62,342 nt of DNA, filler included, from Stramenopiles sp. TOSAG23-6 (GCA_900128565.1; 32 parts of 32 records of this genome joined end to end with filler, not necessarily neighbours in it), one strand, 5' to 3'. Positions 3,924 through 60,408 are shown, counted from the whole stretch's first letter. Translations and numbers: made by a program. Notes: a model not told the origin generated them from the sequence alone.

Positions 3924-3993
3924 AATGTTTTGTTAGGTACAAAATTTTCATACAAAAAAAAAAAAATTTGAAATGTATGATGAAAAAACATAC
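3924..3993 (-). other. Non-canonical intron family member, 3'-truncated by contig end
   Basis: AT|GTATGTTTT donor and TTTTGTACCTAAC motif. Confidence 0.8.
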
Positions 3994-5730
3994 ATTCACA
4001 TGAATTTGATGAAACATCTAATTCTGTGAGTCGTGCACTACACATTTGCATTAAATCTGGTACACATTCATAGATAGTTTTTTTAAAAAAAACGCCCTTT
4101 TTTATCTCCTGAAGAATATTCGGTGATTTACAAATACAAGTTTTAATATTACCAAGGTTACCAAGAACAAACCCTTTTTGTTTTTGACATGTATTTTGGA
4201 AAAATATTTCAAAAAAAAAAAAACTTAAATTGGTTAGGTACAAAATTTCGTATGAAAAATAAAAATAAATTCGATTTTTTTGTTTAAAAAAAAAAAAAAA
4301 AACATACATTCACATGTTTTTTTTCCAGTAGTACTTTTTGAAACATCTACACCAAATTCATAATATGCTTCGCATTGAGGATCATCTGAAGGACAGCATT
4401 GAGGATCATCTGAAGGACAGCATTGAGGATCATCTGAAGTACAATATGAGTATACATTAGTTTCTCTATTCTGTTTTCGAAACACTGTGATGGAGCGTTT
4501 ACATTCACATCTGTTTCTAAATATAGTACTTTTAGAAAGTTGCGCTGGATGTATACATCGACATATATTTCCATGTACCCCTATACCATCGATTTCAACT
4601 TCTTCTACGTAGTCTTTTTTTGCTATTGGACAAGTACATCCGTTTTTGCTTTCTGCAGGAGGTACACATTTACACTTATATATATTGTTATCTAGTATAT
4701 ATCGATTAGGGCCTTTACAGCGACAGGCAACTGAATGTATTTTGGAAAAATATTTCAAAAATTTTCTATAAAATTTTTTTTTGTTAGGTACAAAATTTCG
4801 TATGAAAACCAAAAAAAAATTCAATTTCAAATTTAAAAAAAAACATACATAGGAAGGATCTGGAACAAATCCAGCTTCAACTTTTTTAATTTCAATTTTT
4901 TCATGATAATATAAAGAATATTTTTCTTCATATTCTTTTTTATGTATAAATGGTTTTGTACTATAAAATCCTTCTTGGATTGGAAAGTTGTAAAAAGAAT
5001 ANNNNNNNNNNNNNNNNNNNNNNCTGGTCTTTTTTACGTTGACTTGGTATGAAACGTTTATAATATCCACTTCTCAAATGAAGATCTTGTCTTGTTCTGT
5101 CATGTACAAAATGATGAGGTTTTTGTTGTTGTTTTTGGTTTTCTATTAAATCTATTTCTTTTTTTTTTTTTTCTTCAAATTTATTTATAGCTCTTGTAAA
5201 ATGATAATCCTCTAATGATTTTCCTTTTGGAAAAAAATGTTTCTGAACATTCTTTATAGAATCATTTACCATAGATTGCCCATATTGTCCAGGGATGTGA
5301 AACTTTTGCTCGATATTCCAAAATTGATCTTCAAAATGATCAATTTGATGCTGAATTAAATTGTTTTCTGTATAAATTTTGACATGTTCATATACAAAAG
5401 CGTGTTTTGAATCATCATCTAGTTTCCTATTTTGAAAATTATAGTTTTGACTTTTTTCGTGTAAATATCTTTGATAAAACATTGTTTTATATGTATTATC
5501 TTGGGTGTAATAGTTTTCATCAATGTAAACGTAATCAGCTGAAAAAGGTTGTCGTGGTGGATTTGACGTAAAAATATAAAGAGATTCATCATAATCAGGA
5601 TAAAATCCAGCTCCAGAATATTTTCCAGGTCTTTGTAGTGTATATTCATATAACTCTTTAAGTAAAGGATCATCCCAGATACGTTTTTGATTAATTACTT
5701 TGAAATCATCGTCATTCCATGGATCATAAA
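3994..5730 (-). CDS. Partial multi-exon Cys-rich (EGF-like CxC repeat) protein, interrupted by non-canonical introns
   Basis: Removing 4735-4848 and 4189-4307 joins DPSY|SVACRC and KTCEC|QKQKGF in frame. Confidence 0.7.
4189..4307 (-). other. Non-canonical GT-AT intron (119 nt)
   Basis: GAAT|GTATGT...TTTGTACCTAAC...CCAAAATACAT|GTCAA; removal restores the frame. Confidence 0.88.
4372..4439 (-). repeat. 24-bp coding tandem repeat, ~3 copies (SDDPQCCP)
   Basis: GCATTGAGGATCATCTGAAG(GACA) is repeated on the + strand. Confidence 0.9.
4735..4848 (-). other. Non-canonical GT-AT intron (114 nt)
   Basis: TAT|GTATGT...GTACCTAAC...AAAATACAT|TCA; phase 0. Confidence 0.85.
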
Positions 5731-5784
5731 ATGTATTTTGGAAAAATATTTCAAAAAAAAAAACTAAAATTTGTTAGGTACAAA
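5731..5784 (-). other. Non-canonical intron, 3' part only
   Basis: GTACCTAAC...GAAATATTTTTCCAAAATACAT followed by an open frame (FYDPWNDDDF). Confidence 0.8.
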
Positions 5785-5884
5785 NNNNNNNNNNNNNNNN
5801 NNNNNNNNNNNNNNNNNNNNNNNNNNNNTTAATTAATTAANNNNNNNNNNNNNNNNNNNNNNNNNNNNNNNNNNNNNNNNNNNN

Positions 5885-5938
5885 AATTTTGTACCTAACA
5901 TTTTTTTTTTTTTTTTGAAATATTTTTCCAAAATACAT
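5885..5938 (+). other. Non-canonical intron, 3' part only
   Basis: TTTTGTACCTAAC..TTGAAATATTTTTCCAAAATACAT at the contig start. Confidence 0.8.
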
Positions 5939-7744
5939 GTCTGGAATATCAGAGTTTGTTATTTCAACAGGTTTGTCGAAACGTACCTCAGCAAAATATG
6001 CTATTAATATGTACCATACTTTATTTGAAAAGTGTGTACCTATTATAAAGGATACAAAAAATTATATCCATGAAGAAAATCAAAAAAATCAAAAAAATCA
6101 AAAAAATCAAAATTACTTTTTCATACATTCCGTATACGAAATATGTTATGTAATTACTCAACATACAACAAAAAAGTGTTTTCCAACATTTCAAGCATTG
6201 TACCATCATCTAATCAATACAGCAGTCTGTGCCTGTACCGAATTGTTGAGTACAAATCCATCATATGTATGTTTTTTAAAATTTTTTTTACAAAAAAAAT
6301 CGAATTTTTTTTTTATAGTAAATTTTGTACCTAACAAATTTTTTAAGATTTTTTTTTGAAATATTTTTCTAAAATACATCATACATCATATAAATCCATA
6401 CAATCCTTGCGTACACCTAATACATCTTTACCATCTTTACAATCGGAATTTTCATTGAATAACAATATAGACATAAAGTATATATATGCAATGTCAATTG
6501 TAATTACGGTACGTATGTATGTTTTATTTTTTTGAAAATTTGAATTTTTTTTTTTTAATTTCCGTACGGAATTTTGTACCTAACGACTTTTTTTTAGATT
6601 TTTTTTTGAAATATTTTTCCAAAATACATTTTATGTGATATCGATACTAAAACACGAAATGAGCATAATGACCAGATTAATAATATTATTATAAAAGTTA
6701 CTGGCTACACCATCAATGATGGGTTTTCGATATATAACAAATATTTACTTCAGATAGCTTCCAATGCTGAAATAAATAGTCCATATCTTTTAAAATCTTT
6801 AGGTACGAAATATACTACGAAAGTTAATAATAATTATCATAAAAAAGAAAAAACACAAAAATCAAATTCTTTACATAAAAATAGTAGTACCAAAACAGAT
6901 GCTTATGAAGAAGGAAGTGTTTCTTCCTTCAAAGAATATTCCATTAATAATGAGTTACATAATATTGAACACAATATTGAGCATGTTGTTGGAGCTGCTA
7001 CTTATAGACTTGAAAATGGCTTACAAAATATTGAACATGCCGTTGGAGTAGAAGCTCATAAACTTAAGAATGAGTTACATAATATTGAACATAATATTAA
7101 ACATGCCGTTGGAGCAGAAGCTCATAAAGCTAAGAATGAAATACATAGTATTGAATATAATATTGAACATGCTATTAGAGCTGATGCTCATAAAATCAAT
7201 AAAGATTTACATAGTATTGAACATACTGTTGGAGCTGAAGCTCATAAAATAAATAAAGCTGCGCATAATATTGAACATAGTATTGAACATGCTGCGTCAG
7301 TAGAAGCTCATAAAATGAATAAAGATTTACATAATATTGAACATGCTGCGTCAGTAGAAGCTCATAAAGCTAAGAATGAAATACATAATATTGAACATGC
7401 GACATCAGTAGAAGCTCATAAAATCAGTAAAGGTTTCCATCATTTTTTTCATTCGATTTCGACTAAAGCGCAAAAACTTCATAAAGAAATGCATAGCATT
7501 GAACATAATATTGAACATAATATTGAAGCAGAAGCTCATAAAATCAATAAAGATGTGCATAATATTGAGCATGCCGTTGGGGCAGAAGCTCATAAAGCTA
7601 AGAATGAGTTACATAATATTGAACATGCCGTTGGAACAGAAGCTCATAGAGCTAAGAATGAGTTACATAATATTGAACACAATATTGGACATGCCGTTGG
7701 GGCAGAAGCTCATAAAGCTAAGAATGAAATACATAATATTGAAC
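5939..7744 (+). CDS. Partial protein with C-terminal His-rich ~18-aa repeats (NIEHAVGAEAHKAKNELH); exons 5939-6266, 6380-6516, 6630-7744
   Basis: Removing the two inserts gives one uninterrupted frame that runs into ORF 7315-7800. Confidence 0.8.
6267..6379 (+). other. Non-canonical GT-AT intron (113 nt)
   Basis: TAT|GTATGT...GTACCTAAC...AAAATACAT|CAT. Using the internal AG at 6346-6347 gives an immediate TGA. Confidence 0.88.
6517..6629 (+). other. Non-canonical GT-AT intron (113 nt)
   Basis: AT|GTATGT...GTACCTAAC...AAAATACAT|T; phase 2, restores a long ORF. Confidence 0.88.
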
Positions 7745-15684: not shown

Positions 15685-17286
15685 AGACGAAGGCCTACAG
15701 GCACGTCTTGAAGAACGTACCAAAACTATTCAACCTGGAAGTACATGTGCTTACATATACACATCTGGTACCACAGGTCAACCAAAAGCTGTAATGATGT
15801 CACATGATAACATTATATTCGAAGCTCGTTCCGCTGACAACTCACTTGAAATTTTTGGCTTTAGTGGTGAAGAAAGAATTATTTCTTATCTCCCTCTTTC
15901 CCATGTCGCAGGCATGCTCCTTGATATTGTATTTCCTATTGCATGTACAGCATTTAAACCTGATGGATGGTTTAGTACCAATTTTGCTCGTCCGTATGAT
16001 TTGAAAATTTGTTCCTCGTGTTTGGGAAAAGTTTGCAGAAAAGATGCAAGAAATTGGTGCTGCCATTAGAGCCAAAGGTGGTTTAAAACCTATGATATCC
16101 TCTTGGGCAAAGGGAAAATTGCTTTACAATGCAAGAGAGTCTACTTTGGGTGGTTCTGGTAGTAGAGCATGGGGTCATTCTGTTGCATCCTATATTATGG
16201 GTAAAGCAAAAGCTGGTCTTGGACTTGATCAAATGAAGTTTGCTTTGACTGGCGCAGCTCCAATTAAAATTGAAACTCTTGAGTATTTTGGACAACTTGG
16301 TATTTGCATTAATGAGGTATATGGAATGTCAGAATGTGCCGGTGCTTCGACGTTTTCTACTGATCATGTACGTTTTCATCTTTCATTTTTTACCAATTTC
16401 GAATTTCTTTTGGTACGAAGTTTTGTACCTAACGAATTTTACAATGAAAAATTGTTTCACAATACATGCTCACGTATGGGGATCTTGTGGTTTTCCAATG
16501 CCAGGTGTTGAAGTAAAGATTTTCAAAACATCTGATTCTGGTAAATCTGGCGAATTAGTCGAATGTCCTCGAGCTACTAATTTCAAGAATGTGACGGAAG
16601 AGCAGCAAGGAGAGATTTGTTTTCGTGGTCGAAATACAATGAGTGGCTATATGGCTAATCCAGAACTTGGCGAAGAACATGTTGCTACTATACGACAGAA
16701 GAACATTGATGCTGTTGACGAAGATGGCTGGATTCATTCTGGTGATATGGGTTGTATGAGTGACACTGGATTTGTAAAAATTACTGGCCGTTACAAAGAA
16801 CTAATTATCACTGCTGGTGGTGAGAACGTTGCTCCTGTTCCAATTGAAGATGAAGTCAAGAGAAACTGCCCAGCTGTATCAAACATTGTCATGGTTGGTG
16901 ATAAACGGAAATTCAATATTGCTCTTGTTACCCTTAAAGCGTACGGTACTGGTGAGGAACCTGGAGGTCAAGATTTGGAAAAAGCAGCTGCATTGCATGG
17001 TTGTAAAACTATTACTGATGCAATGGCTTCCAAAGATTACACTGATATGATCAAAAATGCCATCGTCAAAGCAAATAAGAATGGCGATGTTTGTCCTTCT
17101 AGTGCTTCACAAATTCAGAAATTTACTATTCTCCCCCACGACTTTTCTGTTTCTGGAGGTGAGCTCACTGCTACACTGAAAACGAAACGTAGTGTTGTTT
17201 CATCTATGAATAATTCTTCTATTGACCGTTGTTATGATGCTTCTGTGCCAAGAGCTCAAGCATTTGTCAGATACAAGGACGCATAG
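15685..17286 (+). CDS. Long-chain acyl-CoA ligase (bubblegum/ACSBG-like), C-terminal part; one intron and an apparent deletion/frameshift near 16005
   Basis: YIYTSGTTGQPK, SYLPLSHVAG, VPRVWEK, YGMSE, GWIHSGDMG and ITGRYKELIITAGGENVAP motifs. Confidence 0.92.
16368..16467 (+). other. Non-canonical GT-AT intron (100 nt)
   Basis: CAT|GTACGT...GTACCTAAC...CAATACAT|GCT joins TFSTDH to AHVWGSCGFP. The next AG (16503-16504) would delete the GSCG motif and shift the frame. Confidence 0.92.
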
Positions 17287-17644: not shown

Positions 17645-18189
17645 CATGCCCAGCAAATCATTATTGTCTTGTTGGTAAAGTCTGTAGTGCTACAGCAAAG
17701 GAATCAAAAAAGAAGATCATTGAAGCAAATATCAAAGCAGTATTTACCGATAAACAATATGATCCAAACGATCAAAAAGTTCTTGGTCAAATTGCACAGA
17801 TCATTGTGGATGAAGTAAAATTGAAAGGTCTTAGTGTTAAGGATGGTTCTGATGGAATTAGTTTTGGCCCAGGATCAATAGTTGCTCGTTTTATTGTTCA
17901 ACAAGAAGTGAATCTAGATGAAGAAGTTATACCTACAAAAGAAGATGTGCAGAAGACATTAAAGAATGAATTAGATTCCGCATCTGCTAAAGAGAAGTTT
18001 GAGGCTGTTGGATTTTCTTCACCGAGTGTGGCGGTAACAAACTATAATATTACTGAAAAAGTTCTTACGCCAAATGATGGTGATATCAACACTAATCATA
18101 TTTCTCATGCTTCCCTGAATTGTAATATAATCAGTCCTTTCATAGCGGCTTTAATTATGTTTAATATGTTATTTATACAATATATTTAG
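17645..18189 (+). CDS. C-terminal part of a surface protein with an SEA-like segment and hydrophobic tail (possible GPI or TM anchor)
   Basis: Open frame from the contig start, with FGPGSIVARF motif and a hydrophobic C-terminus. Confidence 0.5.
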
Positions 18190-18667
18190 TATGTAAATAT
18201 AGTGTAAAATATATCAAAAGAGATATTTGTTTTATTGAGATTGAGTGAAATATATCAAACGTTATCCTATATATTCTTTATTACTTTTTTTGTTTTTTTT
18301 GTTTTTAACTTGTTGATTTTTTTGTAATATATTCTTTTCATTACTTTTTTTGTAATATATTCTCGAATTCTTTTTCTTCGCAACCATTTAACAAAATGGA
18401 ATGCTTTGATATAACCACAAATGTACTAGTAATGATATTATACATTATGTCCTCTCGGGATCTCAGATCTCTCTACTCTAAAATGTTATAAAATGTTACA
18501 TTCGCGAGTTAAACATTATTTCAAACACGAAAACACGAAATCCAAGATTCAAAAGTTTTGTAACTTTGTAACGCTGTAACGTTTTCTCTCTCTCCCTCTC
18601 TCTCGCTGTTATATTAAAATCTTTCTGTGTATAATACGGAATCAAACCAAATTTTTAGCATTGTGCA

Positions 18668-19503
18668 ATGGGTCTCACACAATCTTTGACATCACCATTT
18701 AAACGGATTCAAGCGTATACACTCCAGGATGCAAAGGATTTGCGAGAGAGATACCGTGACAGTGACCTTGATTTTGGGATAAACGCTTCGGAACTCGCAA
18801 CACTTTTGGAGTCAAAAGACATTGAAGAGGCGAAACGCATGATCTTTGCTTTTACAGACAAAGCAATTGTATCTATCATCAATCTGATTGGTGGAGCAAT
18901 CGTATGTTGCAAAGGTGATTCCACAGAAAAAATGGCAGAACTATTTGACGTTATTGATTTTGATTCTGATGGGAAAATTTCCAAGGACGAGCTCGCATGT
19001 CTTTTAATTGCAACACAGTCCGGTGTTAGCAAGTTAACAGGAAAAGGTCGTTTAAACACTAATGAAGAAGTAAACATATATATAAAAGAAGCATTTGAAG
19101 ACGTTGGTACACAAAAAGATGCAAAGTTGCCTAAAGATTCGTTTATTAAATGGATGAAAACAAAAGTTTCCGCCAATGCAAGTGTAGATTCAGTTCAAAG
19201 AGCGTTTGGTTGTAGCGAGACAAAGGAATCAGAAAATAAATTTATGGACAAAGAAGACTCAGTGGAAAAGGTCAACGAAAACACAGATAACAATGTAGAA
19301 AATGTAGATGAAAAAGTAACTAATCAAAAAGATGAAGAAGTTTTGTTAGATGAGGAAAAGGGAGAGGAAGAAACCAAGCCAAAGAATGAAAAAATTGACA
19401 AAACGGAAAACGAAAAAACTCCTGAAGTAAAAGTAGAAGAAGCACCAAAGGTGGATGAAGCTGTTGAAAAACCTGAAGAAGTAGAAGCACCAAAGGTGGA
19501 TGA
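18668..19503 (+). CDS. EF-hand protein with MG start (possible myristoylation) and acidic tail; 3' partial
   Basis: MGLTQS start, canonical EF loop DFDSDGKISKDE and E/K-rich repeats. Confidence 0.8.
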
Positions 19504-21562: not shown

Positions 21563-21619
21563 TAGGTACAAAATTTCGTATGAAAANAAATAAATTTGAA
21601 ATTCATGATGAAAACGTGC
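21563..21619 (-). other. Non-canonical intron with GC donor, truncated
   Basis: TAT|GCACGTTTTCATCATGAATTTC...GAAATTTTGTACCTA directly after HKAKNY. Confidence 0.8.
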
Positions 21620-22516
21620 ATAATTCTTCGCTTTATGACACTCATCNAACAGTAAACAGCCTGTAAANTCAGCAGCTTTACCAGCCTGATTCGTACACCA
21701 TTTTACAATGGCATTTAATCTAGACCCTGAAGATTTTGTGCCTTTTGAAATTAAAGTCGAATATGTACAATACAAAACACTGGCGCCACTACAATTAAGT
21801 CCAAACGCNTTTTTTCCAAGTTTATCTAATTCCTGACATCCATCAATTACCGATATACCTAATGCACCTAAGTCCCTAATATCNCGTATCGCATCATGAC
21901 GTAAAGGTTGCGATACAGAAAACCATATATGGCGGGAACGACCACGTGCTACATTGTCTAACACAATCGCTGCTAATTGTCTACCTTTTCCAACTCCCGT
22001 TCCGTCACCAATAAAAAAACCTGCGCGAGATCCATCAGCGAGAAAATGCCTATGACGATGACATGCATACGCAACTCCTTCGAGTTGAAGCTCACTAAGT
22101 TTACCAGCAGAAATGCAATCTTTAGGTAACGCATCAGGTAGGGGGTAAAAAGCACCAACAGAAGGCATTTTTACAGCCGAAAGAGTTGAAGCTTCTACAA
22201 TATCACCTGGATGGCGATGACCATAGTTTACAGAGCGACATTTATATTCCGCAAATACTTCCGACACAATACCTTCTTTTGCATTTTCTGCAACATTGAG
22301 CTCATTGAGAAACTCATCGTTTGTATCAAGACCTTTCGATGGGACAACATTTAAATCAGGCTTTGTAGTCGGTACATTTACTTGCAAAACACGTCGTGCA
22401 CCTGGTTCGAAAACAGGACAAATTAGACGGAGCCTCAAACCATCATGATTAAATTCATAAGATTGACCGCTTTCAATATCTGGAGGTATTGTAATCCGTA
22501 TGATGCGATACGTCAT
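21620..22516 (-). CDS. SBNO: Strawberry notch-family helicase-like protein, N-terminal exon
   Basis: HPGDIVEASTLSAV, LSELQLEGVAYAC, GFFIGDGTGVGKGRQLA and DECHKAKN motifs. Confidence 0.92.
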
Positions 22517-22756
22517 TTCTTTTACGAAGAAATCTCTCTTTGAAGAAAGGTACACTGAACTCCGAGACCTTCGTTGTGTTTGTTTATTCAGTGACCTTAA
22601 TTTTGACCCCGGTCAAAATTTTAGGGGTTCAATTGAAATTTGATACGGTAATACCCGTACAGGAGCATTCGCATTGTGTTGTTCGTGTGTTTCCGTGTGT
22701 TTTAATTTATTTACGTAAACTTTGAAGTAGTTGAACGAGAATTGCATTGAACGAAA

Positions 22757-23417
22757 ATGACGGAAATAAAGAAAAAGATGCCTAAGCCATACAAATGTAG
22801 AGCGATGTCATTCAGTTGTGGTTCGTTTAATTACAAACTTCCCGAACACCTCTCCACGACGCAGGCAGATAGTTTCCACATTCAATACGGTAAGAGTACT
22901 TTTAAGTTTCAGTGGTTCAGTCGAGACAGGGTATACAGAAAGGTCGAAGTTCGCTTTGATGATATTGCCGAATTTCGGATTATTAAAGCGACAGGTGGTG
23001 CAAATGAAATCTGTCCAACAACGCTTCAATTTCGTCTCTATGATGTAAATAAAACAAAAGTAACGTCACAGAAATGGAACGAAAGAAAATGGCTTGAGTC
23101 TTCAAAGACTGTTGCAAATGGTGCAACCCTTACTTGCGGTGTTCATACGATGATTTTCAGCCATAAGGGCGATAAAGCGAGAAAAGCAATCGATACACTA
23201 TTTGAGCACTTCCCTAATTTAGCCGCATTAGCAGAAGCTAATACGGGTCCTATTACTGGGAAAAATTTTGCAGTTCGACCAGTGGTCAAAAAACGTGTTT
23301 TGGACAACAATACAAAAGAAAACTCTGCACCAAAACCGAAGAAACCGCGCAAGAAAGCTGTCACAGCAAAATCGCTTGGACTTACACAAGAAGAGTTCAA
23401 TTCAATAAAGTTACCAC
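22757..23417 (+). CDS. Hypothetical protein, 3' partial
   Basis: Long ORF with an ATG start, divergent from SBNO. No family recognised. Confidence 0.6.
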
Positions 23418-23517
23418 NNNNNNNNNNNNNNNNNNNNNNNNNNNNNNNNNNNNNNNNNNNNTTAATTAATTAANNNNNNNNNNNNNNNNNNNNNNNNNNN
23501 NNNNNNNNNNNNNNNNN

Positions 23518-23656
23518 CTCTCCAGATTGGCCTCAAATGGGACGTAAAGCTACTGAACCATATTGTACTTCTCTGTGCTGGTCTCCTGACGGTCTTGTCC
23601 TCTTTTCCGGTTACACTGATTCCGTAATTCGTGTCTGGCAAGTGTCTGTGATTTAA
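23518..23656 (+). CDS. RACK1: RACK1 (G-beta-like) C-terminus
   Basis: [30 protein letters not shown] matches the RACK1 C-terminus. Confidence 0.85.
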
Positions 23657-23939
23657 GTAAATTTCTAGGAGTTTACTTGAAGTATGTATTGATTACATAT
23701 AATATTTTGCTACGTATGCTATAAATAGTGTGAATAGAGAAATATGTAACCAATAACTAAAGGTGAGTTGTAATGATTTTATGAATTCTCTGAATGGATT
23801 GCCATAGTTTGGTTTTTTGTATTATTAAATAACGCTAAAGAATTACTGTAAGTACTAGTATTATCGCGGAAAGAAGCGAAATAATAATTTTTTGAAGATT
23901 CACTTGAAGTACATCAAACGTATATAGATTCATAGGATA

Positions 23940-24411
23940 ATGGCTACAGAGTCAAAGGAAGGCGAAGCGCCTACAGATATCACAAAGTTGCCTGTTGAAC
24001 AACTTAACATGATAAAGAAACAGCTGGAAAATGAGATAAAAGCCTTAGCACAAAACTACCATGGTCTGCGCAGTGCAAAAGCACGTTTCACCGAGTCAAA
24101 AAAAGCGCTCGAGCCGTTTACACCTGAAAACAATGGCAAGTCATTGCTTGTGTCACTTTCTGAATCTTTATATGTTCCGGGCGTAATGAGTGACGTTAAA
24201 GAGGTCATGGTGGATATCGGAACTGGTTACTTTGTGTCCAAGTCAATTCCTGAGGCAAAAATATACTTTGAAAAGAAGAACAACTTCCTGAGTAGCCGAT
24301 TGAAGGAAGTGGAGAAAGTTTTGGTTGCCAAAAAAACAAAATGCGCAAAGTGTAGTGATGGTGATGCAAGGAAAGATAGCGGAAATGTCTCAGAGTCAGT
24401 CGCAACAATAA
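23940..24411 (+). CDS. PFDN5: Prefoldin subunit 5 (alpha type); +1 homopolymer frameshift near 24330
   Basis: LLVSLSESLYVPG..VMVDIGTGYFV motif. Removing one A gives AKKQNAQSVVMVMQGKIAEM..*. Confidence 0.88.
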
Positions 24412-24501
24412 AAACGAAATGATTTTCTTTTAATTCTTTTTATCTCTCCCATAAATACTATGTATTTGTACCAAATGTTATACTTTTTAATCATTATATA
24501 T

Positions 24502-25371: not shown

Positions 25372-26375
25372 NNNNNNNNNNNNNNNNNNNNNNNNNNNNN
25401 NNNNNNNNNNNNNNNTTAATTAATTAANNNNNNNNNNNNNNNNNNNNNNNNNNNNNNNNNNNNNNNNNNNNCCTCAATCTGCTGCACGATTCCCGACGAT
25501 GGGTTATTCTGGCTCGGCTTTTAGGCGTCGCCCTTCAGTACTACTACGGATGCACTGGAATGCTCGCAGGGCCCAAGTAAACAGGACCCATAGAAGCGGA
25601 ACCCAAGGAAACAGGGCCCAAGAATACAGTCCCGTTGTCGTTGAAACGCCGAGCTCGTCGCAATCGCAGCCGGCAATTAGCACAGCACACACCAGGAACG
25701 CTGCATCCGTGACTGAAGAATCCAAGACAGAGCAACCGCGGCAAGTACACGCTTGCGTATACTGTGGAAAATCATATATCCAGGTAAAGCGCGTGCGCAT
25801 CCTACCCGCGCGCATTCCGTTTTGTGGACATTTTGTTCCATGCACACGAGTCTAACGCGGCAAACGCAGCTGTGCAATCTAAGATTGCATATCTAAACAC
25901 ATTGCAAATACATTGGTAAAAGACCATTCCAATGCCACGTTTGCGGTTGGTCCTATTCACAACTATCATATCTCAAGCGACACATTTCGGAGCACCACGT
26001 GTCGGATGCACCAGCGTGACCTACAGCACTTTTTCTCCCGCCGACATAATCACACGCACAAGTATTGGTGCTACGCGGCATGGAGACCTAAACTCGTCGT
26101 TTATTCAACGGATTGACGGCAGTTCACAAGGACAATTTTGAGTTGTTTAGCATTAGCACAGCAAGTTGACGGGAAAAAACACCTCCTAGAATTGTAAGAA
26201 TTGTAAGTGTACAGGCTCAAGTGTTTTTGCACTGGCAAGAGACACTAGGAATTTGAATGCGACAGAACGAAGACACATGTTTAGACATCTGCAATTAGAT
26301 TTCCGTTTTCATTTCGTTACGTGCAACTTCTGCTGTTGCATGCGAAAACAGGATCTGATATTGGTGTGCATAAAA

Positions 26376-44963: not shown

Positions 44964-46320
44964 GTGGAAAATCACACCAAGAACGATATTTGCAACTATT
45001 GTGTGGTAAAGATGAAAATGGTGAAAACAAAGATGAAGATGCAAGTAGTGATGATAGTGAAGAATCAGATATTGATGAAACTGATCGTAATCCTCTGTTA
45101 GAAACTAGTAATTTTGTGGGACAAAACCCTTCATCTCGTGCAAATCGTTGGTTTAGTAATGCAATTTTTGATGATTTAGATGATGATAATGACGATGAAA
45201 ACAAAACTGTTATCAAGAACGCCAAGGTAAATGCAGACTCTCAACAAAAGCAATCAGAAAAAATCTCAGCTGTAGAACGAATTTCCAACGAACTTGCTTC
45301 ACTTCCAAAAAGTAACGGAAAAGAGACGAAGGTCGAGAAAAGCGCGATTCTAAAGGTTTTACTGTTATTGCGCGGGAACAAGATGATGATAATAATATAA
45401 CTGATAATATTATAGATGAAACAAAAACTGATTTGTCTACAAGATTTGGTCGTCGTCGAGCTCGTGATGCCCTAGAATTAAAAGAAAGTATTGCGCGTCA
45501 AGCTGCAAATGAAGCTCTTATTCGTGCCGGCATGGGTGCTAAAATCGATAAATCTACAGTACTAGCTTCTCAAGCTGCATATAATAGTGATTCTTCTGAC
45601 GATGAAGATGAGCGAGAACGCAAACGGGTAAAAGTTGTTTCTGGTTTCGAAGTGGTAAAAAGTAAAGTGTCTGATGCAACTCAGAAAGCTCTAGATTATT
45701 TTGATGACATCGAAGTCGGTTCTACTGAACATGCGAGGACATTGGCCATGGGTGAAATAATGCTCAAACATAGTAAAGCTAAAGATCTTCTCGATGGTAC
45801 ATATAATCGATTTGCTTTTGATGATCCCGAAGGACTGCCAAGTTGGTTTGTTGATGACGAAAATCAACATAATAGACCTCAGTTGCCAGTAACACGTGAA
45901 ATGGTTGAAAAGATTAAAGCACGTTATGTCGATCTTGCAAATAAACCTATTAAAAAGGTTGCCGAGGCACGTGCAAGAAAACGGTTCAAGGCAGTGCAGA
46001 GGATGAAAAAAGCTAAACAAAGAGCCGAGGCAATTGTTAATAATGATGATTTATCTGCAGTATCCAAGATGAATGCGATTCGTAAGGCGATGAAAAAAGC
46101 AGAAGTAAAGAAACCTGGGAAATGTTATGTTGTTAATGCTGGTAAAGGACGTAAAGCTAAAGGTGGTAGAGGTTCTAAATATGCTACACGAGTCGTGGAT
46201 AAACGTTCAAAAAATGACAAACGTGCAACGAAACGAAATCTGGACGGAAAACACAAGACGAATAATCGTGGTAAAAATCAAAAAAGAAAATCTAGTCATA
46301 AAAAAAGACGTCGTAAATAA
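44964..46320 (+). CDS. SPB1: SPB1/FTSJ3 rRNA methyltransferase, C-terminal part; frameshift near 45310
   Basis: YNRFAFDDPEGLPSWFVDDENQHNRPQLPVT..PIKKVAEARARKR..VVDKRSKND motifs. Confidence 0.92.
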
Positions 46321-46911
46321 GTCACATATAATTTTAAATATTAGCAATATGGTGTATTATAAAATTAACACATTATACATATCTATTAGGATTTTGTAAT
46401 ATATATATTTCATGTAATAAACTAGTTCAGATTTAGCATTAAATTTTTTTAAAACATTTTTTCGTACGAATATTTGTACGTAACAAATTTAACAAAAAAA
46501 AACGATTGTAAGATTTTATTGATTTAATTCAGCCCTACCTATTTGACTTTTAAATACTACTAATAATTATTAATTTTAAGTATTGTGTGAGATTTTATTG
46601 ATTTTAATTTAGCCCTATTTGACTTCTAAAAAAACACGACTAATAACTTAGTGTTGTACATATTATGAAATTCCATACAAAAACATTTTTGGAATACTTC
46701 TTGTTATTGTCACTGTTTTTTTTTGTCGATACTATTTTGTAACTATGATTATGCAACATTTGCTGATGTTGTTGATGTGGCGATCATTCGACGGCCTTTA
46801 TTGACGTATTTNNNNNNNNNNNNNNNNNNNNNNNNNNNNNNNNNNNNNNNNNNNNTTAATTAATTAANNNNNNNNNNNNNNNNNNNNNNNNNNNNNNNNN
46901 NNNNNNNNNNN

Positions 46912-48916: not shown

Positions 48917-49023
48917 GGAAAAAAAAAAAAAAAAAAAAAAAAAAAATCGAATTTATTTTTTCGTACGAAATTTTGTACCTAACAAACTTTTTTATGATTT
49001 TTTTATATTTTTCCAAAATACAT
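48859..49023 (+). other. Non-canonical intron, 3' part, followed by a terminal exon 49024-49091
   Basis: TTCGTACGAAATTTTGTACCTAAC...TTCCAAAATACAT|ATAGATCTGGA...TAA. Confidence 0.8.
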
Positions 49024-49660
49024 ATAGATCTGGATGTTCACTGTATGAAGAAAATCTTGAAGTTCCTATAGAAGCTCATGAATGTGATTAATTATTTTTA
49101 TTATTTCAGCAACATAAAATATAAAAAAGAATTTTTATAATTAGAATTTTAAATTAGTTGGATAGAACTGATTTTTTTTTTTTTTTTTGTAGTTAATTTT
49201 GTACCTAACGATTTTTTTGGCAAAAGTAAAAACAAAATGAGGTCTCCTTTAGGATTCATCACTCATGAAAGACTATTTCTTTGATTCTTTGTCTACTTTA
49301 TCTTCTGTGTTGTTGTATATACGTATCTTTGGATTCCATACCATTTTTTTGTACTTATTTTTTTAGGTATGAAAAAATGGTACGGAATCTTTTTTAANAA
49401 AAAAAAAAAAAAATCGGCAAAAATCCCAAAAATCGCCGAATTGAATCCAAACTTCCGTTACACTTTCTGTCGGCGTTTTTTCGTAGTAAGTAAGTAAGTC
49501 AGTAATATTTTACTTAATATAACTAGTATTCCAAGCACATAGCTACTTTTATTTTCTTATTCTCACTCTAAAAAGTGTGATCTTGGAGCCATTGTTGTGT
49601 TCCTTCCATTGAATATCATACAAACACATTTAAAATCCATTTGAAGTTGAACTCTTTATA

Positions 49661-50644
49661 ATGACAAAACTTTTATTTTTTTTGTTCATTTTTTTTATTG
49701 CCTCTTTGGTTCGTCCTATATTCTGTACAAATCCTACTACAAATCCTACAAATATAGACAAACAACAAGTATACCGTGTTCGATACCGTTTACATAACAA
49801 GGATAACAATGCCGATGTGGAATCGAATGAAAATGGAGAAAAACAAGAAAAACAAGAAAAACAAGAAAAACAAGAAAAACAAGAAAAACAAAATAAGTTT
49901 ACACTAAAAGAGCATCGTCGTCTCTCTCACAAAGATGCATTTATGTCGTATTTGCTAGACCTCAATTTTGATTTGCTTGGGATTTCTTATACATTACATT
50001 TCAAACGAAACCAAAACACAAATGTATCAAAAGTATTTGCTGAAAATGCAACGCATACACTTATAACAAATAGTGGCTCGATACATGTACGTTTTCATCA
50101 TGAATTTCGAATTTATTTTATTTTTCATACGAAATTTTGTACCTAACAAAAAAATCAAAAATTTCAAAAAAATATTTTTTCAAAATACATTCAAAAACGC
50201 CATACGAATTACAAAACATTCCGCGTTTTGAATGCGAAAATGGATTATTACTATTACTTAATCATTATGTTCATGATGGAATACATGAAAATAATATGGA
50301 ATCCAAATTATCATTTGATATTGAAAATCAAAAAGATCAAAACAAAACTCAAAAAAATCAAAAAACTCAAAAAACTCAAAAAAATTCATACGAAAAACAA
50401 AAGAGTAACCCTAACCCTAGTAATATTGCAATACTTGATGGATTTTTTATCCAAGATGACAAAATGTTTAATTTTCGAACATCTCAAAAAGATAGTGATT
50501 ATTTGATTATTACCCAACATAAAAGTGCAATTCCAACCACTAAACATCAAAATAATCAAAAGAATCAAAATATTGATAATTCTCATCCTACTCGTCGTGG
50601 AAGAGTACTAAAAATCGATGAGTGGAAACCATGTACAGGACAAT
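49661..50644 (+). CDS. Secreted protein N-terminus, reprolysin/ADAM prodomain-like; exons 49661-50086 and 50191-50644
   Basis: Signal peptide, LNFDLLGISYTLHFKRN, and a basic RRGR site. The family call is tentative. Confidence 0.55.
50087..50190 (+). other. Non-canonical GT-AT intron (104 nt)
   Basis: CAT|GTACGT...GTACCTAAC...CAAAATACAT|TCA joins ORFs 49661 and 50137 in frame. Confidence 0.9.
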
Positions 50645-52749: not shown

Positions 52750-52815
52750 TTAGGTACAAAATTTCGTACGAAAAAAAAAATTCGATTTTTTTGTAAAAAA
52801 AAAAATAAAACATAC
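52750..52815 (-). other. Non-canonical intron, 3'-truncated
   Basis: GAT|GTATGT...TTCGTACGAAATTTTGTACCTAA after the GSED motif. Confidence 0.82.
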
Positions 52816-53466
52816 ATCTTCTGATCCAGTAACCACACTTTTACCATTTTGTAAAGATATTACACAATGTAAAAATTCTTCATGACCTGAAAATGTCGAA
52901 GTAATTTCACTGTGTTCCAAGTTCCAACAATACGCGTTATTATCACCAGCAGCAGAATAAAGATGATCGCCATTCACAAATATTCCATTTGTTTCACTTA
53001 GAGGAGAAAGAGAGTTCCGATGACCCACTCGTTGTGGATTTTGAAATGAGCGAACTTTTGCTTTATCAGCCGTGTTTATAAGAGAATCGGAGTCCTGAGA
53101 TAGATTTTTTGCACATTTTTGAAACCCACGTAATTTTAATAAAGTTTCCCAACGCCAACAGTGTATGTAATCATCTCCGGCGCTAATGAGTAGATTTCCA
53201 TTGGTCGAAAATTTGAGATCATAGATAGAGCCATCTTCGTGGGCTTGTAAGGCACATAAAGGTTCACGATAACTTTCTGAAGACTCACACCATAAATGGT
53301 CCAGAGTCCAAATATTCAATCGACCCGTACTAGATCCGCATATCAAATAACGACCACATGGTGAAAACAGAGTCGATAGGATTGTTGACTCACGCTGTGC
53401 ACACTGTAAAAGAAGCTCTTCTCTATGCTTCTTTTCTGAGTAAAATGAAGGTGGCAAGTCAGCCAT
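52816..53466 (-). CDS. THOC6: WD40 protein, THO complex subunit 6-like, first exon
   Basis: FSPCGRYLICGSSTG, AHEDGSIY, SETNGI, LYSAAGDN..WNLE..FSGHEEFLHCV..TGSED. Confidence 0.7.
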
Positions 53467-53805
53467 TGTATTACGACGCCGAGGGGGTACTGAAAAAATA
53501 TAGTTATTGTAAAAGAAATACACTCTTTTTGTTGAGTGAGTTGAGTTGAGTTGAGTTGTGAGTCAACTTTTTCAGTGATAACGATTTTTGAGATGGCAAT
53601 CAACGAATCTAAATCAACGTACCGAAGATAAAGCACGAAATCTGTGTCTTGAATATAGTCCCGGGTACCGAAATAACGGTTTCATTAAAAATTACCAAAG
53701 TAGTATCTTCTTTTTCTACTTCAGGAATCAATTATTAATTTATCATATAACCGCGCCACCGCCCAGGACATACGTACATAGTGTGTAAATCTCATTTTTA
53801 TTTAA

Positions 53806-54539
53806 ATGGCGGCTGTTGATGGAAAGCAAGATGAAATAAATCAAGCTTTTAATCTGTATTGTATTTATAACCCCCGAACGGATCATTTTGATAAAGCAAA
53901 TGAAGGAAAAGTTCTCAAGTCTTTACTTGGTCACATCGTTCGAGCCGTTGGTTGTACACCAACGTCTGAAGAACTCGAGGAAGTCCAAAATTCAATAAAA
54001 GGTGACTATATTACAATAAAGCATGCGAAAGATGCTGTGAATAAGTTTAGCTCAATGAAACAGTATACTGTAGATGACATGTTAGACGCGTATGATGTCC
54101 TTGCTGAGGAAGGGCATAAAAGCAACCATATTGACAGCGTTATTTTGGCAAAGAAAATGAAACGCCGTTTAGTCACGGATTATCTCGTTAGTCAGATGAT
54201 AATAGATGCACATCCAGATGAAGAAGGGATGATTAATTACAAAGAATTTGTCGATCGCCAATTTGCAGTAAAAAATTTAAGTATCAAAAAAAAATCTTTT
54301 CCAAAAACTCCAAGTGTTGAAGAAGTCAAAGCTCGTTTGAAGAGTTTGTATGGTGAGGAGACTGGCCCAAAGTACACTTCTAAATACAAAAATAACGCAC
54401 AGTTATATCGTGAGTTGGGTGGGAAAGCTGCAGCAACTAGACAATACATAGAGTATGGCAGACAACAATTAAAAGTTATCAATGAAACTGTTAAAAATGA
54501 ACTTGACACTAGTTTGGTTTCAAAGAAAATTGCGGCATT
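53806..54539 (+). CDS. Protein with an N-terminal calmodulin/myosin-light-chain-like EF-hand region; first exon
   Basis: LGHIVRAVGCTPTSEEL and DEEGMINYKEFV. Confidence 0.7.
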
Positions 54540-54550
54540 GTATGTTTTTG

Positions 54551-54581
<31 letters not shown>

Positions 54582-54592
54582 TTTTTTTTTTT
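54540..54592 (+). other. Family intron, 5' part only
   Basis: TT|GTATGTTTT followed by a T-run to the contig end. Confidence 0.6.
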
Positions 54593-55085: not shown

Positions 55086-55152
55086 GTCCTCTCAACAAAA
55101 AAATAAACAAACGTCCTCTCAACAAAAAAATAAACAAACGTCCTCTCAACAA

Positions 55153-56663: not shown

Positions 56664-58161
56664 ACGCAATGACTTGTAGCAGATTTGTATCAATTTTGTC
56701 ATTTGCAGCAATGTATTCTAATGATGAATCAATAAATGTATTATTCAATTGTTTTGTTGATTTTGATGAAATCTTTTTGGTAAATATTTGGACACCATAA
56801 AAGTTTGTAAATACAGAAAATGTCATTATTGAAGAGAATGGATTTTTTTCAATATTGCTTAACTTATATGTTTTTAATATTTTCAACAAAGATATCTCAA
56901 CAGAATCCAAATAGTCCGCAGATGCTTCCAAAAGTTGTATAATAAGTTTGTATAGTAAAAAGATTCCAAAATTTTAAATTCGTCAGGTACAAAATTTTCA
57001 AAGTAAAAAAAATTTTAAAAAAATTTCGTACCAAAAAAAAAAAAATCATAATAAAAACATACAAACGTAAGAGATACAAAGAAGCTATTTGTGCACGCGG
57101 ATGAGTCCAAAGACAAACAATTCTATAGAGTAAAGAAATTTCAGCTTTCGGAATGTTACAGGATTTACTAGAGAGAGTATGCTGTGTTGTCGTCATAGAA
57201 GTGAAATTATCAAGACAATTTGATTTTTCTAGAACACTCGACAGATGAGTAATCATTGTACATGTATTTTGGAAAAATATTTGATTTTGGTTTTGTTAGG
57301 TACAAAATTTCGTACGAAAAAATAATTCGAATTTGAAAAAAAATAAAACATACATTGTTCCTTTGTTAAATGGAAAGGAATGCCTGAGATTTGTATTGTT
57401 TTACTAGCAATATTTTCTGAAATGGATATCAACCTTTGTCCCATGGTTACTGCACTTGTTGAATCTGTATAAAATGTTGGTTTTGTTGCCACTTTTTCAA
57501 AGTTTTCAAAACGTTCCGTACTATTTTGTTCTTTTAATACATTTATTTTTTCTTCTTTAGTTTCTTTTTTACTACTACTACTACTACTATGTGATACACT
57601 TTCATTGGTTGACACTGCTGGTGGTGGTGCTGATACAATACCATGAGATTCTAAAGTGTTTTGCATTGAACCAGTGAAACTATCTATGAAAGGAGCAAAT
57701 TGAGCACCCAATGGAGTGGCAGCAAACTGTTCAGGCTGTTTCAATATTCTATCAGGTATACGTCCAGGACCTAATAGAAACGAGACAAGGTCGTTTGAAA
57801 AATGGTTACAATTATGACGAAGTAGCGAATAAGAGCCACATCTCCACTGTGCTTTAGCAGTGTTAAGAAAAGCAATTAATTCAGAGTTAGTTTTTCTTGT
57901 TTGCCCTAAATTAATTATTTCAATCGGACGCATACCAAACATTTGTTCAAACTGGATTGGAGGCAACGAACTTATTCCACTATCATCTGGACGCGTCCCA
58001 CCACCTCCGAAGAAATACTCAATTTTTTGTCCAGAAAGTGAAATACATACTCCAGTATGATAGATAGCATCAAATTGCTGTCCGGTCAAAGCAAGTGACA
58101 TTGTACGAGCCATACCCCTAGAAATATCATAAACGCGCAATAACACACTTGCATCGGACAT
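56664..58161 (-). CDS. PPPDE/DeSI peptidase fused to a PUL-like domain; exons 58161-57354, 57261-57063, 56947-56664
   Basis: VYDISRGMA, IYHTGV, EYFFGG and YSLLRHNCNHFS (His/Cys dyad). Spliced LYLLRLLII is a PUL-like motif. Confidence 0.85.
56948..57062 (-). other. Non-canonical GT-AA intron (115 nt)
   Basis: TT|GTATGT...GTACCTGAC...CTATACAA|ACTT gives LLRLLIIQ. The TG-CA register would create a TAA. Confidence 0.78.
57262..57353 (-). other. Non-canonical GT-AT intron (92 nt)
   Basis: CAAT|GTATGT...GTACCTAAC...AAAATACAT|GTACA joins two ORFs. Confidence 0.9.
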
Positions 58162-58571
58162 TATGAAAACTCAGTAACACTATGAACTGGGATAATTGAG
58201 TTTATTAAGAAATATTATATTTGAGCAACTATAATATCATAACATTGGTGGAAGAGTGAGAAAGCTGTGAGAAAGAGAACAACACACAATGCGCGAATGC
58301 ATCATTTCATAATATCTAACCCTAACCCTAACCACTTCTGACCCAATATTTTGAAAAATAACGGACATTGTAGTAATAGCTACTTATATCTACTATATAT
58401 ACTTATAACTAGTAGAGGAATATAGGCTATTTATCTAAGTAGTGTATCTTATTCTCAAGCAATCTAATATGNNNNNNNNNNNNNNNNNNNNNNNNNNNNN
58501 NNNNNNNNNNNNNNNTTAATTAATTAANNNNNNNNNNNNNNNNNNNNNNNNNNNNNNNNNNNNNNNNNNNN

Positions 58572-58786
58572 TAGGGGTTTGGGAGTGTACACCCGGAGGT
58601 TTCCCTGTTGATACTCGAACAACTACAGAGACAGTATACATTATATCCGGCAAAGCAATCATAACAAATAACACTGACAAATCAAAGAAAGAGATCAAGG
58701 CTGGAGATGTATTGGTGCTGCCTAAAGGTTGGAGCGGCAGATGGGATATTACAGAAACACTCAAAAAGGTATACATTCTAGCTTAG
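58572..58786 (+). CDS. Cupin (DUF861/EutQ-like) C-terminal part
   Basis: GVWECTPG...ETVYIISG...AGDVLVLPKGWSGRWDITETLKKVY. Confidence 0.85.
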
Positions 58787-59018
58787 AGTAGTGATTATTT
58801 ATTTCATATACTTTAATAAACAACTTTGAATACAACTCATTATTTTTGAAAGAAGTTTATTTATACGTCACAAAATAGAGAAAATAATGACAATTTCACA
58901 ACAAGAAATGTGCCACATTTTTGGAATAGATTTAGTATACAATACTGTACGTAAAGGTTAATACACTAGCAAGAAAACACTCTTTGCTATCCAATGTTTT
59001 ATACAATAACATTTTTAA

Positions 59019-60408
59019 TTAAGCAGTAAAGTCTTCATCCTCAGAGTCATCTTCAGTATCACCTAAACGCCGACGAGTCTTTTTATTCTTCTTCTTCTTT
59101 TTCTTCTTTGCTACTGGCTTATTGGGCAAAACTTTTTTCTCAATAGAGACGGGGGGTGGCATTTTGACACGAGTGCCAATACTCGCATTATTCGTTGAAA
59201 TATCATTACACTTTGCTTCAGTATCATCATTATCAGTAACTACATTGCCGAGTAATTTACACTGAACTTTAAGATCTGACAAATTACTATTATACGCTAG
59301 TTGCACTAGAAATTTTCGATTCGGTAGAGATAACACAGGTGTTACACGAGACTGACGCAATATTGTTTTTTCACTACTCTTGGCAGAAAAATCACGACAT
59401 TTTGCATTTGTGAGAGCGTATAATTCCATAAGATATATTTTCAAAGACTTTACAATTAATAAACTTGAAGCTTTTGTACACAATTTTCTTAACTTTTTCA
59501 TAGTAGCTGAATCCATTACAATTTTAGGACGATTATTTGAATTCAAATCTAAATCATCTATTTCATCAGATTCTTCTCCATCGCCATCAGCACCATCATT
59601 AAAATGTTCATTCGTAGGTAAGATTGATGTTTCATGAGCGGAAAATATACTTACTATTTCTTCATGAAGTATACCAGCTCTCAGAGAAATTATTCGGTCA
59701 ATTTGTTGAATAATGAATAAGGGTTCTTCTTCATGTGTGTAAGGCAAATTTGCAAGTTCAATAGCTATGTATTTTGTGAAAATATTTTTCAATTGTTTTT
59801 TGTTAGGTACACAATTTGGTACGAAAAAATAAATATATTCGAAATTCAATTTTTAAAATGTACATTTGACGTAGATACAAAAGTTTTGCACCAGCAAAGT
59901 TATAAGCCACTCGATCTACATTTCGTTTTTGTTTATCATCGCCATTTTTTTCCTCAAAAGTTCCAGTGTCTTTTACCATTTTCAATGGTGATGTCAATTG
60001 TTTCAGAAACTTTTCACCAGCAAGGCCTTTACGTTGTGGGTCAAAATAAGCCAACATTTGTCTCATAAAAACTTGCATTCGAGTTCGTGGCATTTGAAGA
60101 CATTTTTTATATACTGAGCCTAGGATGGATTTGTGCTCTTCATTTAATTGGCCTAGTTCAGCTTTAATGTTAGTAGAGTACACAAAACCTAGAAGAGCGC
60201 CTTCAGCTACACACAAACCTGCCAAGTCAGGATTATCTATATGCTCAGAGCAAATTAATTTCATCGCATGAGCACACACTTCAGCTTCTGGATCACTTTG
60301 CAAGGCAATAAGCTTTGTAAAAGATCCCATTGGGTTAACAATACCTTGACGTAAAACAACAGCTAGCATTCTTACTGCAGCATTACGAACACCAGTGTTT
60401 GTGTCAAA
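59019..60408 (-). CDS. NIPBL: Nipped-B/Scc2 cohesin loader, C-terminal part; one intron
   Basis: VLRQGIVNP..LIALQSDP and LANLPYTHEEEPLFIIQQIDRIIS motifs. Confidence 0.85.
59767..59863 (-). other. Non-canonical GT-AT intron (97 nt)
   Basis: AT|GTACAT...GTACCTAAC...AAAATACAT|AGCT. Using the AG 2 nt downstream would shift the frame. Confidence 0.9.

Follow-up and report, generated by a model that had tools for sequence, protein, structure and literature searches.

Short transposon-like inserts with GT...AT ends are probably spliced from the genes of an AT-rich marine eukaryote

The genes on a 62,342-base stretch of DNA from Stramenopiles sp. TOSAG23-6 (GCA_900128565.1), which we analyzed at its full length and refer to as the window, are interrupted by copies of a single family of short repeated inserts. 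The copies lie in the sense orientation to their host genes, their removal joins the reading frames on the two sides, and two of them are precisely absent from environmental RNA. We consider it probable that they represent an introner-type family, each copy being removed as a spliceosomal intron with GT...AT ends and taking its final AT from a duplicated target sequence.

A repeat family in coding exons

The window is composed of 32 records of 1,834–1,862 bases (~1.85 kb) each, sorted by length and separated by spacers of the form N44-TTAATTAATTAA-N44, and contains 21 unique contigs after de-duplication. Following de-duplication and hand checks, we identified 28 copies of one repeat family in 11 unique contigs, with lengths of 88–144 nt. 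An earlier reading of the same DNA, made from the sequence alone, had counted about 31 inserts of 90–145 nt in 11 contigs; the number of contigs is unchanged by our recount, while the number of copies and their size range are slightly revised. Both ends lie inside the contig in about 20 copies, the others being cut by contig ends or runs of N. At least seven contig ends are located inside a family copy, as expected, since high-copy repeats break assemblies.

The copies start with GTAYGTTTT and share the invariant internal motif TACCTAAC, the longer invariant block in the alignment of 14 full copies being GTACCTAAC. They are closed by a conserved 3' box (...CCAAAATACAT), of which the form GAAATATTTTTCCAAAATACAT is common to most copies, and variable runs of T and A separate the conserved blocks. 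A 21-nt core, taken from the sequence-only reading, was matched 28 times with three or fewer mismatches, as compared to none in 100 dinucleotide shuffles. The profile built from 14 full-length copies gave 46 matches at E<0.01 in the window, with duplicate contigs counted. The motif TACCTAAC occurs 21 times within the listed copies and once elsewhere, and this last occurrence proved to belong to a further copy. The host genes encode an acyl-CoA ligase, Nipped-B, a GMC oxidoreductase, strawberry-notch (SBNO), WD40, PX-domain and PH-domain proteins, and others.

Scans of public collections revealed no further copies in either genome contigs or viral contigs. Three metagenome loci (L001–L003) that matched a 19-nt core were rejected as chance matches; they are unrelated sequences of 38–44% G+C, and two of them are near-identical.

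Orientation, phase and reading frame

Scored by the flanking open frames, 26 of 29 candidates are in the sense orientation, and wherever the coding flanks are clear, the copy has the same orientation as its host gene, as the sequence-only reading had stated. Among the three candidates that did not score as sense, 21563–21619 is in fact sense to the SBNO gene, and 6791–6833 and 46440–46500 are weak or doubtful matches. The inserts were also said to occupy all three codon phases, and phases 0, 1 and 2 are indeed represented by 6, 5 and 3 of 14 introns. Exact removal from GT to AT joins long sense frames in 12 of the 14 testable introns, as compared to about one third expected by chance, and the ends of the repeat match the frame-restoring ends in 12 of 14.

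The protein sequences around the junctions were compared with homologues and Pfam. In the ACSBG-type acyl-CoA ligase gene, which bears a full copy of 100 nt in phase 0 (16368–16467, plus strand), the homologues are colinear over the junction. The alignment of the homologue P0055 reaches residue 189 ahead of the insert and resumes at residue 193 behind it, and the three residues in between correspond exactly to the codons left on removing 16368–16467. The relative P0004, which is 72% identical, shows no gap at this junction. In the Nipped-B_C region, Pfam matches lie on both sides of the phase 2 copy of 97 nt at 59767–59863 (minus strand), which also restores the frame. The PH and GMC matches that are interrupted by introns fall under the Pfam cut-offs. 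The DeSI/PPPDE domain is located entirely upstream of the phase 1 copy of 92 nt at 57262–57353 (minus strand), which is supported by the frame test. Thus, the proposal that removal restores conserved proteins is strongly supported for the acyl-CoA ligase and well supported for Nipped-B_C; it is weakly supported for the PH and GMC proteins, and the DeSI domain is not interrupted.

AG dinucleotides near the 3' ends either break the frame or go unused in RNA. The AGs at 6346, 16503 and 59765, which the sequence-only reading had judged unfit, lie at offsets of −32, +37 and +2, and none of them keeps the frame. A divergent copy of 111 nt in the region encoding the C-terminal part of the GMC oxidoreductase (24815–24925, minus strand; weak GMC_oxred_C match) both starts and ends with AT and is in frame, and use of the AG 9 nt downstream would give a stop codon. 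An AG is present between the branch motif and the 3' end in 6 of 18 introns. In a by-eye, non-exhaustive search of 39 kb of the window, we found no canonical GT-AG introns, and every intron recognized belongs to the family. Pairs of same-strand open reading frames (ORFs) lacking a copy, at 17645–19503 and 52750–54592, were ascribed to separate genes or a start codon, not to introns.

Removal of two introns from RNA

Among public runs, a search with the contig at 29378–31226 returned three small DNA runs of one organism, probably the source, and several seawater metatranscriptomes containing 5–14% of the sampled words of the contig. We mapped three RNA runs and one DNA metagenome to this single contig, which the RNA runs covered in part. 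The RNA support consists of assembled contigs from polyA metatranscriptomes, and the runs X4 and X8 come from one study. Two introns of this contig, both on the minus strand, were found in spliced form. The first is a full copy of 101 nt in phase 0 (29620–29720). X4 record 1 and X8 record 24 begin at 29518/29537, reach 29623 and go on unbroken at 29725, with 0–1 mismatches. The 29623|29725 joint yields the same product as removal from the GT at 29720 to the AT at 29620; the aligner set it four bases upstream because ACAT occurs at both edges. The second is a full copy of 119 nt in phase 1 (30882–31000), for which X8 record 28 joins 30881 to 31001, corresponding exactly to GTGCG...ACAT. The RNA contigs leave AGs unused at +7 and +23 nt from the first intron and at +9 and +17 nt from the second.

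These results showed that two introns are removed from RNA exactly at the predicted junctions, and that the AG acceptors are not used there. The sequence-only reading had suggested a motif-agnostic check of transcripts, and at both introns the joints are as it predicted, with the nearby AGs unused. Its broader proposal, that GT-AT introns spliced without an AG are the main class of the organism, is supported in part: exact removal and the unused AGs are borne out at these two introns, GT-AT is the probable register of cleavage, and the family may be the main class.

The alignment of X8 record 28 ends at 31101 with 61 bases left over, which fits the removal of 31100–31189 without showing it. 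This minus-strand copy was found by the profile, has a divergent 5' end (GTCTCTC) and is probably an intron in the 5' untranslated region. In the DNA metagenome, X5 record 8 spans the 3' edge of the phase 1 copy of 144 nt at 30248–30391 (minus strand) in unspliced form. The joined forms were seen in RNA libraries only; the DNA run X5 does not cover the two joined exons, and its DNA might also have a joined form there.

Hundreds to thousands of contigs matched the family core at 31052–31175 in the seawater DNA run and in two of the three RNA runs (X8, 75 contigs), where its summed depth was very high, and the family or its relatives appear to be abundant in those seawater samples. At 30725 and 31098–31104, one copy's 3' end appears to run straight into the 5' end of a different copy in many DNA-metagenome contigs and in a small number of RNA contigs. 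Dimers arranged head to tail may thus be common, although the joining sides are shorter than 30 nt and the hint is unreliable.

Termini and cleavage register

Of 22 copies scored at the 5' end, 20 start with GT, one with GC and one with AT; atypical starts were noted for two copies with AT (24925 and 27849) and one with GC (21619). The 3' dinucleotide is AT in all 23 ends, which were placed partly by that motif, and the preceding intron base (−3) is C in 19 and T in 4. On the exon side, the last base before the intron (−1) is T in 22 of 22 copies, and the base at −2 is A in 18 of 22. Because the flank thus repeats the intron end, an identical mRNA would result from a TG...CA register (always) and from an AT...AC register (18 of 22), and spliced RNA is unable to separate GT-AT from AT-AC or TG-CA. 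We prefer the GT-AT register, the most uniform reading, since its 5' site would be classical (GTATGT or GTACGT, as compared to ATGTAT), it is the only register uniform across the copies, and the 5' motif of U12-type introns is absent.

A branch-like CTAAC motif is located 33–63 nt before the 3' end. An AT alone would be insufficient to define the 3' site, since about five other ATs per intron follow the branch motif. In 14 of 18 copies, no other CAT stands between CTAAC and the terminal CAT, but the copies share descent and therefore do not provide independent evidence. The U12 5' motif RTATCCTT, which the sequence-only reading had reported as absent from the inserts, was found at no family end. 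In the window as a whole, it gave 7 matches as compared to 3.8 expected, and five of the seven are one site in duplicate contigs.

Transposon-like features and proposed mechanism

In the explanation that we favor, the coding exons of a marine eukaryote with AT-rich, gene-dense DNA would have been invaded by short, non-autonomous, transposon-like elements. Each copy, read on the sense strand, would supply a strong 5' site of the major type (GTAYGT), an invariant branch-like TACCTAAC, a T-rich stretch and a conserved 3' box ending in ACAT. The element proper would be GTAT...ATAC, flanked by a 2-bp duplication of the target AT. By excising the element together with the downstream copy of AT, the cell would restore the original coding sequence, and the last two bases of the intron would come from the duplicated target and not from an AG. 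At its second step, host splicing would then have to tolerate (C)AT where (C)AG is usual. The family, its sense-only placement, the joining of frames and the exact removal of two introns are observed, whereas the major spliceosome as the agent of removal, the GT/AT register, the position of the branch site, the transposon origin with AT duplication and the (C)AT-accepting second step are inferred. The account of the terminal AT as a product of transposition would extend the sequence-only reading, to which it is new.

Several features of the copies are consistent with such an origin. Their termini, ATGTAT...ATACAT, form an inverted repeat of about 6 bp, accompanied by a run of T and a run of A, and the repeat is short enough for splice signals to explain it in part. 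The bases just upstream of the element are AT in 18 of 22 copies, as would be expected of a 2-bp duplication of the target. At 27850/27849, a second copy starts right after the terminal AT of the first, which fits insertion at AT, and the apparent joints between copies in the DNA-metagenome contigs provide a further hint, though a weak one. One gene, for a Cys-rich repeat protein, has the site TGTGAAT|GT in three repeats: two carry a family copy at this point, and the third, a paralogous repeat, is intact. One of the copies in this gene is full-length (119 nt, phase 1; 4189–4307, minus strand) and splits a Cys codon. The same protein contains SDDPQCCP repeats encoded by three tandem units of 24 nt at 4372–4443, and its C-E-C motifs are the insertion points of two copies.

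Alternative explanations

A number of points weigh against this explanation. The inverted repeat is only about 6 bp long, and the apparent AT duplication could instead reflect a preference for the target or for the exon end. A paralogous empty site was seen, but no orthologous one, and a longer autonomous element was not found in the window, the scans of public collections having given no further copies. The register cannot be read from spliced RNA, as the flanks repeat the intron end; in chemical terms, the terminal bases of AT-AC make up the classical compatible pair, which G...U does not. The four copies lacking A at −2 are poorly tested, one being partial, one being unsuited to a frame test, one failing the frame test and one having its 3' end set by motif. 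Direct RNA support was obtained for only 2 of about 20 complete introns, and from environmental samples, not from the source cell. Two introns on the minus strand are each one base out of frame. The full copy of 141 nt at 30584–30724, with the flank CT, requires the removal of 142 nt, and an AG 3 nt downstream is no remedy. The composite at 27722–27980 consists of two head-to-tail copies (27850–27980 and 27722–27849), and removal of all 259 nt leaves the frame 1 nt off. Only two relatives were found, among 23 hits, and both exceed the resulting product by six residues; they hint at a hidden micro-exon, and one of 15–16 nt inside the composite would fit the length. Finally, the acyl-CoA ligase contig lacks about 18 conserved residues and has a frameshift elsewhere, and some host genes may be damaged or misassembled.

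If the same elements were cut two bases further upstream, they would be AT-AC introns, processed by a U2-type or a divergent minor spliceosome. The mRNA would mostly be identical, as AT precedes the GT in 18 of 22 copies and AC precedes the final AT in 18 of 23; the aligner itself placed one RNA joint four bases upstream, and a first-base A with a last-base C is a known compatible non-canonical pair. However, the 5' site would then be ATGTAT, a poor match to any known 5' consensus, A is missing from −2 in 4 of 22 copies, and the bases at −4 and −3 are not AC in 5 of 23. RTATCCTT is at no family end and at chance level in the window, and CTAAC, at 33–63 nt from the end, is too far away for a U12-type branch. 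We regard the AT-AC register as unlikely, though it is the rival that we take most seriously. Removal without the spliceosome, or guided mainly by structure, has been proposed for the non-conventional introns of euglenids and hemistasiids, in which pairing of the ends would draw the junctions together and which are reported to have short flanking direct repeats and possibly to derive from miniature inverted-repeat transposable elements (MITEs) (PMC12621601; PMC11282704). The inverted-repeat ends ATGTAT...ATACAT, the boundaries other than GT-AG, and the two copies starting with AT and one with GC would suit such a process. On the other hand, all six introns that were folded were no better than their shuffles (z-scores of −1.1 to +0.6), and the consensus structure had an energy of −0.02 kcal/mol and no compensatory pairs. 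A structure-guided mechanism of the euglenid type is thus disfavored because the introns lack a stable fold. Their ends, moreover, are strongly conserved and U1-like, in contrast to those classes, and the invariant CTAAC and strict sense orientation fit spliceosomal signals, making this second rival improbable.

Even less credence can be given to the idea that the inserts are lost from DNA, either by elimination, as with the internal eliminated sequences of ciliates, or through an insertion polymorphism that lies behind the joined contigs. The inserts are short and AT-rich, have palindromic ends and occur in all phases, and the RNA evidence is environmental, while the DNA metagenome does not cover the two joined exons. 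Nevertheless, DNA excision would not require the copies with coding flanks to be all sense, as they are; the genes read through with the standard genetic code; the joined forms were found only in RNA libraries, with 0–1 mismatches, at two separate introns; and a contig of the DNA metagenome retains an intron edge. The possibility that we rate lowest, and hardly credit, is that the copies are plain transposon insertions that disrupt pseudogenes and are never removed. The unrelated deletion and frameshift in the acyl-CoA ligase contig and the two introns that fail to restore the frame could be read in this way, but two introns are precisely removed in RNA, long frames are restored in 12 of 14 cases as compared to about one third by chance, and the copies are sense only.

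Comparison with known introns

Of the known systems, the family comes nearest to the introners of Micromonas and to the MITE-derived non-AG introns of Fritillaria. The introners of Micromonas pusilla, Aureococcus and wider families co-opt an AG as their 3' end and are spliced as GT/GC-AG introns (PMC11282704; PMC12130899). As in the Micromonas and Aureococcus families, the copies described here are many, short and similar, each constitutes one intron, they reside in unrelated genes of an aquatic host, and they appear to have terminal inverted repeats and a short target duplication (here about 6 bp and probably AT, respectively). Here, in contrast to those families, the apparent duplicated target and the intron end are both AT, and the duplication is probably 2 bp, as compared to 3 bp in Micromonas. 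Nor was an autonomous partner observed in the present case.

Fritillaria borealis and its relatives have MITE-derived introns with inverted repeats and target duplications, in which the 3' end comes from duplicated exon sequence. These introns most often end in AT (34% in F. borealis and 44% in F. pellucida), and their removal is ascribed to the U2-type spliceosome; the 3' AT is preceded by a U-rich tract, and the U2AF subunits are duplicated in F. borealis (bioRxiv 10.1101/2025.08.15.670264; PMC13326754; PMC11282704). The present family resembles these introns in its apparent transposon derivation and in non-AG 3' termini that would derive from duplicated exon sequence. However, the Fritillaria introns mostly start with AG (AG/AC, AG/AT) and are very diverse, whereas the copies described here are uniform, with GT in 20 of 22 and a CTAAC branch motif. 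The invasive introns of Amoebophrya have variable target duplications of 3–5 nt and heterogeneous boundaries, in a host where U1 small nuclear RNA (snRNA) reportedly seems to be absent (PMC11282704). They are likewise multi-copy introns of a marine protist without GT-AG ends, and they have the target duplications and inverted repeats that the present copies appear to have, but the boundaries here are uniform and the 5' end looks compatible with U1.

The non-conventional introns of euglenids and hemistasiid diplonemids, beside which stand the non-canonical introns predicted in single-cell genomes of marine diplonemids, have no conserved ends and depend on stable pairing of their ends, which in hemistasiids are G/C-rich inverted sequences (PMC12621601; PMC6221363). 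The similarities to these introns are the non-GT-AG ends, short flanking repeats, a suspected MITE origin and marine flagellate hosts; the differences are that the ends here are conserved (GTAYGT) and A/T-rich and that there is no stable fold. In a single-gene tree, the SBNO protein of the window did not group with Euglena.

U12-type introns include rare GT-AT and AT-AC termini and tolerate non-AG 3' ends, and they have highly conserved 5' and branch motifs. The present family differs from them in lacking RTATCCTT at its ends and in having a CTAAC-type motif far from the 3' end instead of a TCCTTAAC-like motif close to it. Furthermore, the 3' box varies at positions that would need to pair in a U12-type branch of this kind. 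A keyword and phrase search of the literature, with supplementary tables outside its reach, found no description of a uniform GT-AT introner class.

Individual copies

The remaining copies are described here in order along the window. The 5' part of a copy is cut by a contig edge at 3924–3993 (minus strand; nhmmer E=3.8e-07), its 5' end being gtgaat|GTATGTTTT. The minus strand also bears a full copy of 114 nt in phase 0 at 4735–4848, supported by the profile and the frame test, and the 3' part of a copy cut by a contig edge at 5731–5784 (core match and profile). On the plus strand, the 3' part of a copy stands at the contig start at 5885–5938, and the contig repeats at +1960, +3920, +5880 and +7840. 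It is followed by two full copies of 113 nt, in phase 0 at 6267–6379 and in phase 2 at 6517–6629, both supported by the frame test and also present in four duplicate contigs.

The copies at 21563–29508 are all on the minus strand. The copy in the strawberry-notch-like helicase gene (21563–21619) is a 5' part with a GC start, and the alignments of homologues end at residues 330–338, mostly at 331, the end of the exon. Besides the AT-starting copy described above, the GMC gene contains the 3' part of a copy beside a run of N (24982–25019; profile) and a divergent copy at the contig end (25254–25368), whose 3' end was set by family homology only. The 5' part of a copy at a contig edge (27425–27499; core match) is flanked by CT and not AT, and a full copy of 88 nt in phase 1 lies at 27619–27706 (frame test). 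A full copy of 119 nt at 29390–29508, with the flank TT, cuts the start of the PH domain; only 12 nt of exon follow, too short for a frame test.

Three further copies are on the plus strand: a 3' part with long A/T runs at its 5' side (48945–49023; core match and profile), a degenerate copy with little coding sequence nearby (49172–49219; core match and profile) and a full copy of 104 nt in phase 0 (50087–50190; frame test). The minus strand contains the 5' part of a copy at a contig edge in the WD40 gene (52750–52815; core match and profile) and, at 56942–57062, a divergent copy of 121 nt with a CTGAC branch motif, the flank TT and the end ...CTTAT. The latter copy is in frame, its 3' end having been picked by motif pattern.

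Composition of the window and host genes

The contig at 5885–7744 is present five times in the window, and the contig at 17645–19503 / 33276–35123 is present eight times, in two lengths and with single Ns in some of its copies. All contigs but one have a G+C content of 26–40%. The exception, at 25472–27324, has 49.5% G+C, ankyrin repeats, ORFs overlapping on both strands and no family copy, and may originate from a different organism. The genome appears to be compact, since neighboring genes are only about 140–175 nt apart: about 175 nt separate convergent ORFs at 3026–3201, and about 140 nt separate divergent ORFs at 22612–22751.

Pfam identified an ACSBG-type acyl-CoA ligase, Nipped-B_C, a PPPDE/DeSI peptidase, and PX and PH domains, together with strawberry-notch AAA_34, Spb1_C, Brix/RPF2, an LSM12-type AD domain, prefoldin, WD40, MFS, EF-hand and Y_phosphatase3. 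A long ORF at 6610–7744 and in its duplicates contains dozens of degenerate repeats around the motifs HNIEH and AEAHK, and gave no Pfam match. At gathering thresholds, Rfam yielded no match in the window, and hence no snRNAs there, and a tRNA scan of the window gave none either. Nor does the window provide a splicing-factor gene, U2AF included.

Frame problems unrelated to the family occur in the ligase and Spb1 genes, making assembly errors plausible. In the acyl-CoA ligase, about 18 residues that are conserved in the homologues, between ...ARPYDLK and VPRVWEK..., are absent at 15990–16020, and a one-base frame shift lies at 16007–16010, where there is no family copy. This gap may represent a deletion, a pseudogene, or an artefact of assembly or amplification. 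In the Spb1-like gene, the frame changes inside an 85-nt overlap of two ORFs (45316–45400) with no intron signal, probably due to a one-base error in a run of A.

The affinities of the host were approached through its proteins. In the single-gene tree, the SBNO fragment is sister, with a support of 100, to a EukProt protein, and neither Euglena nor animals, green algae or stramenopiles group with it. The best named matches of RPF2 are animal proteins, at 42–47% identity, and a protein atlas returned only generic RPF2 clusters. We found no evidence for a tunicate affinity, the SBNO tree giving no grouping with animals. Relatives at 72–76% identity were found in environmental data only.

Implications

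Seawater metagenomes and metatranscriptomes from several studies appear to contain the organism, in small shares that were only partly checked. Gene finders and spliced aligners that assume GT-AG introns will mis-annotate every gene of this kind.

The 3' AG is among the most conserved signals of eukaryotes, and large-scale departures from it are found in very few lineages, where the ends are heterogeneous. The family described here alters only the 3' dinucleotide, the 5' site and branch motif being those of textbook introns, and would make a single variable of splice-site recognition accessible on its own. A second lesson would be that an intron-generating transposon is able to spread with no AG, provided that the host cuts after the duplicated target. 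A further-reaching scenario, which we put forward tentatively as possible and not as probable, is that the second splicing step of the host has been re-tuned to (C)AT for most or all introns, with AG no longer serving as an acceptor, and that an AT-duplicating transposon family exploited this change to spread scarlessly through coding exons. If so, this would be the first lineage with canonical 5' and branch signals in which the last intron base is uniformly changed, and would provide a natural experiment in 3' splice-site recognition.

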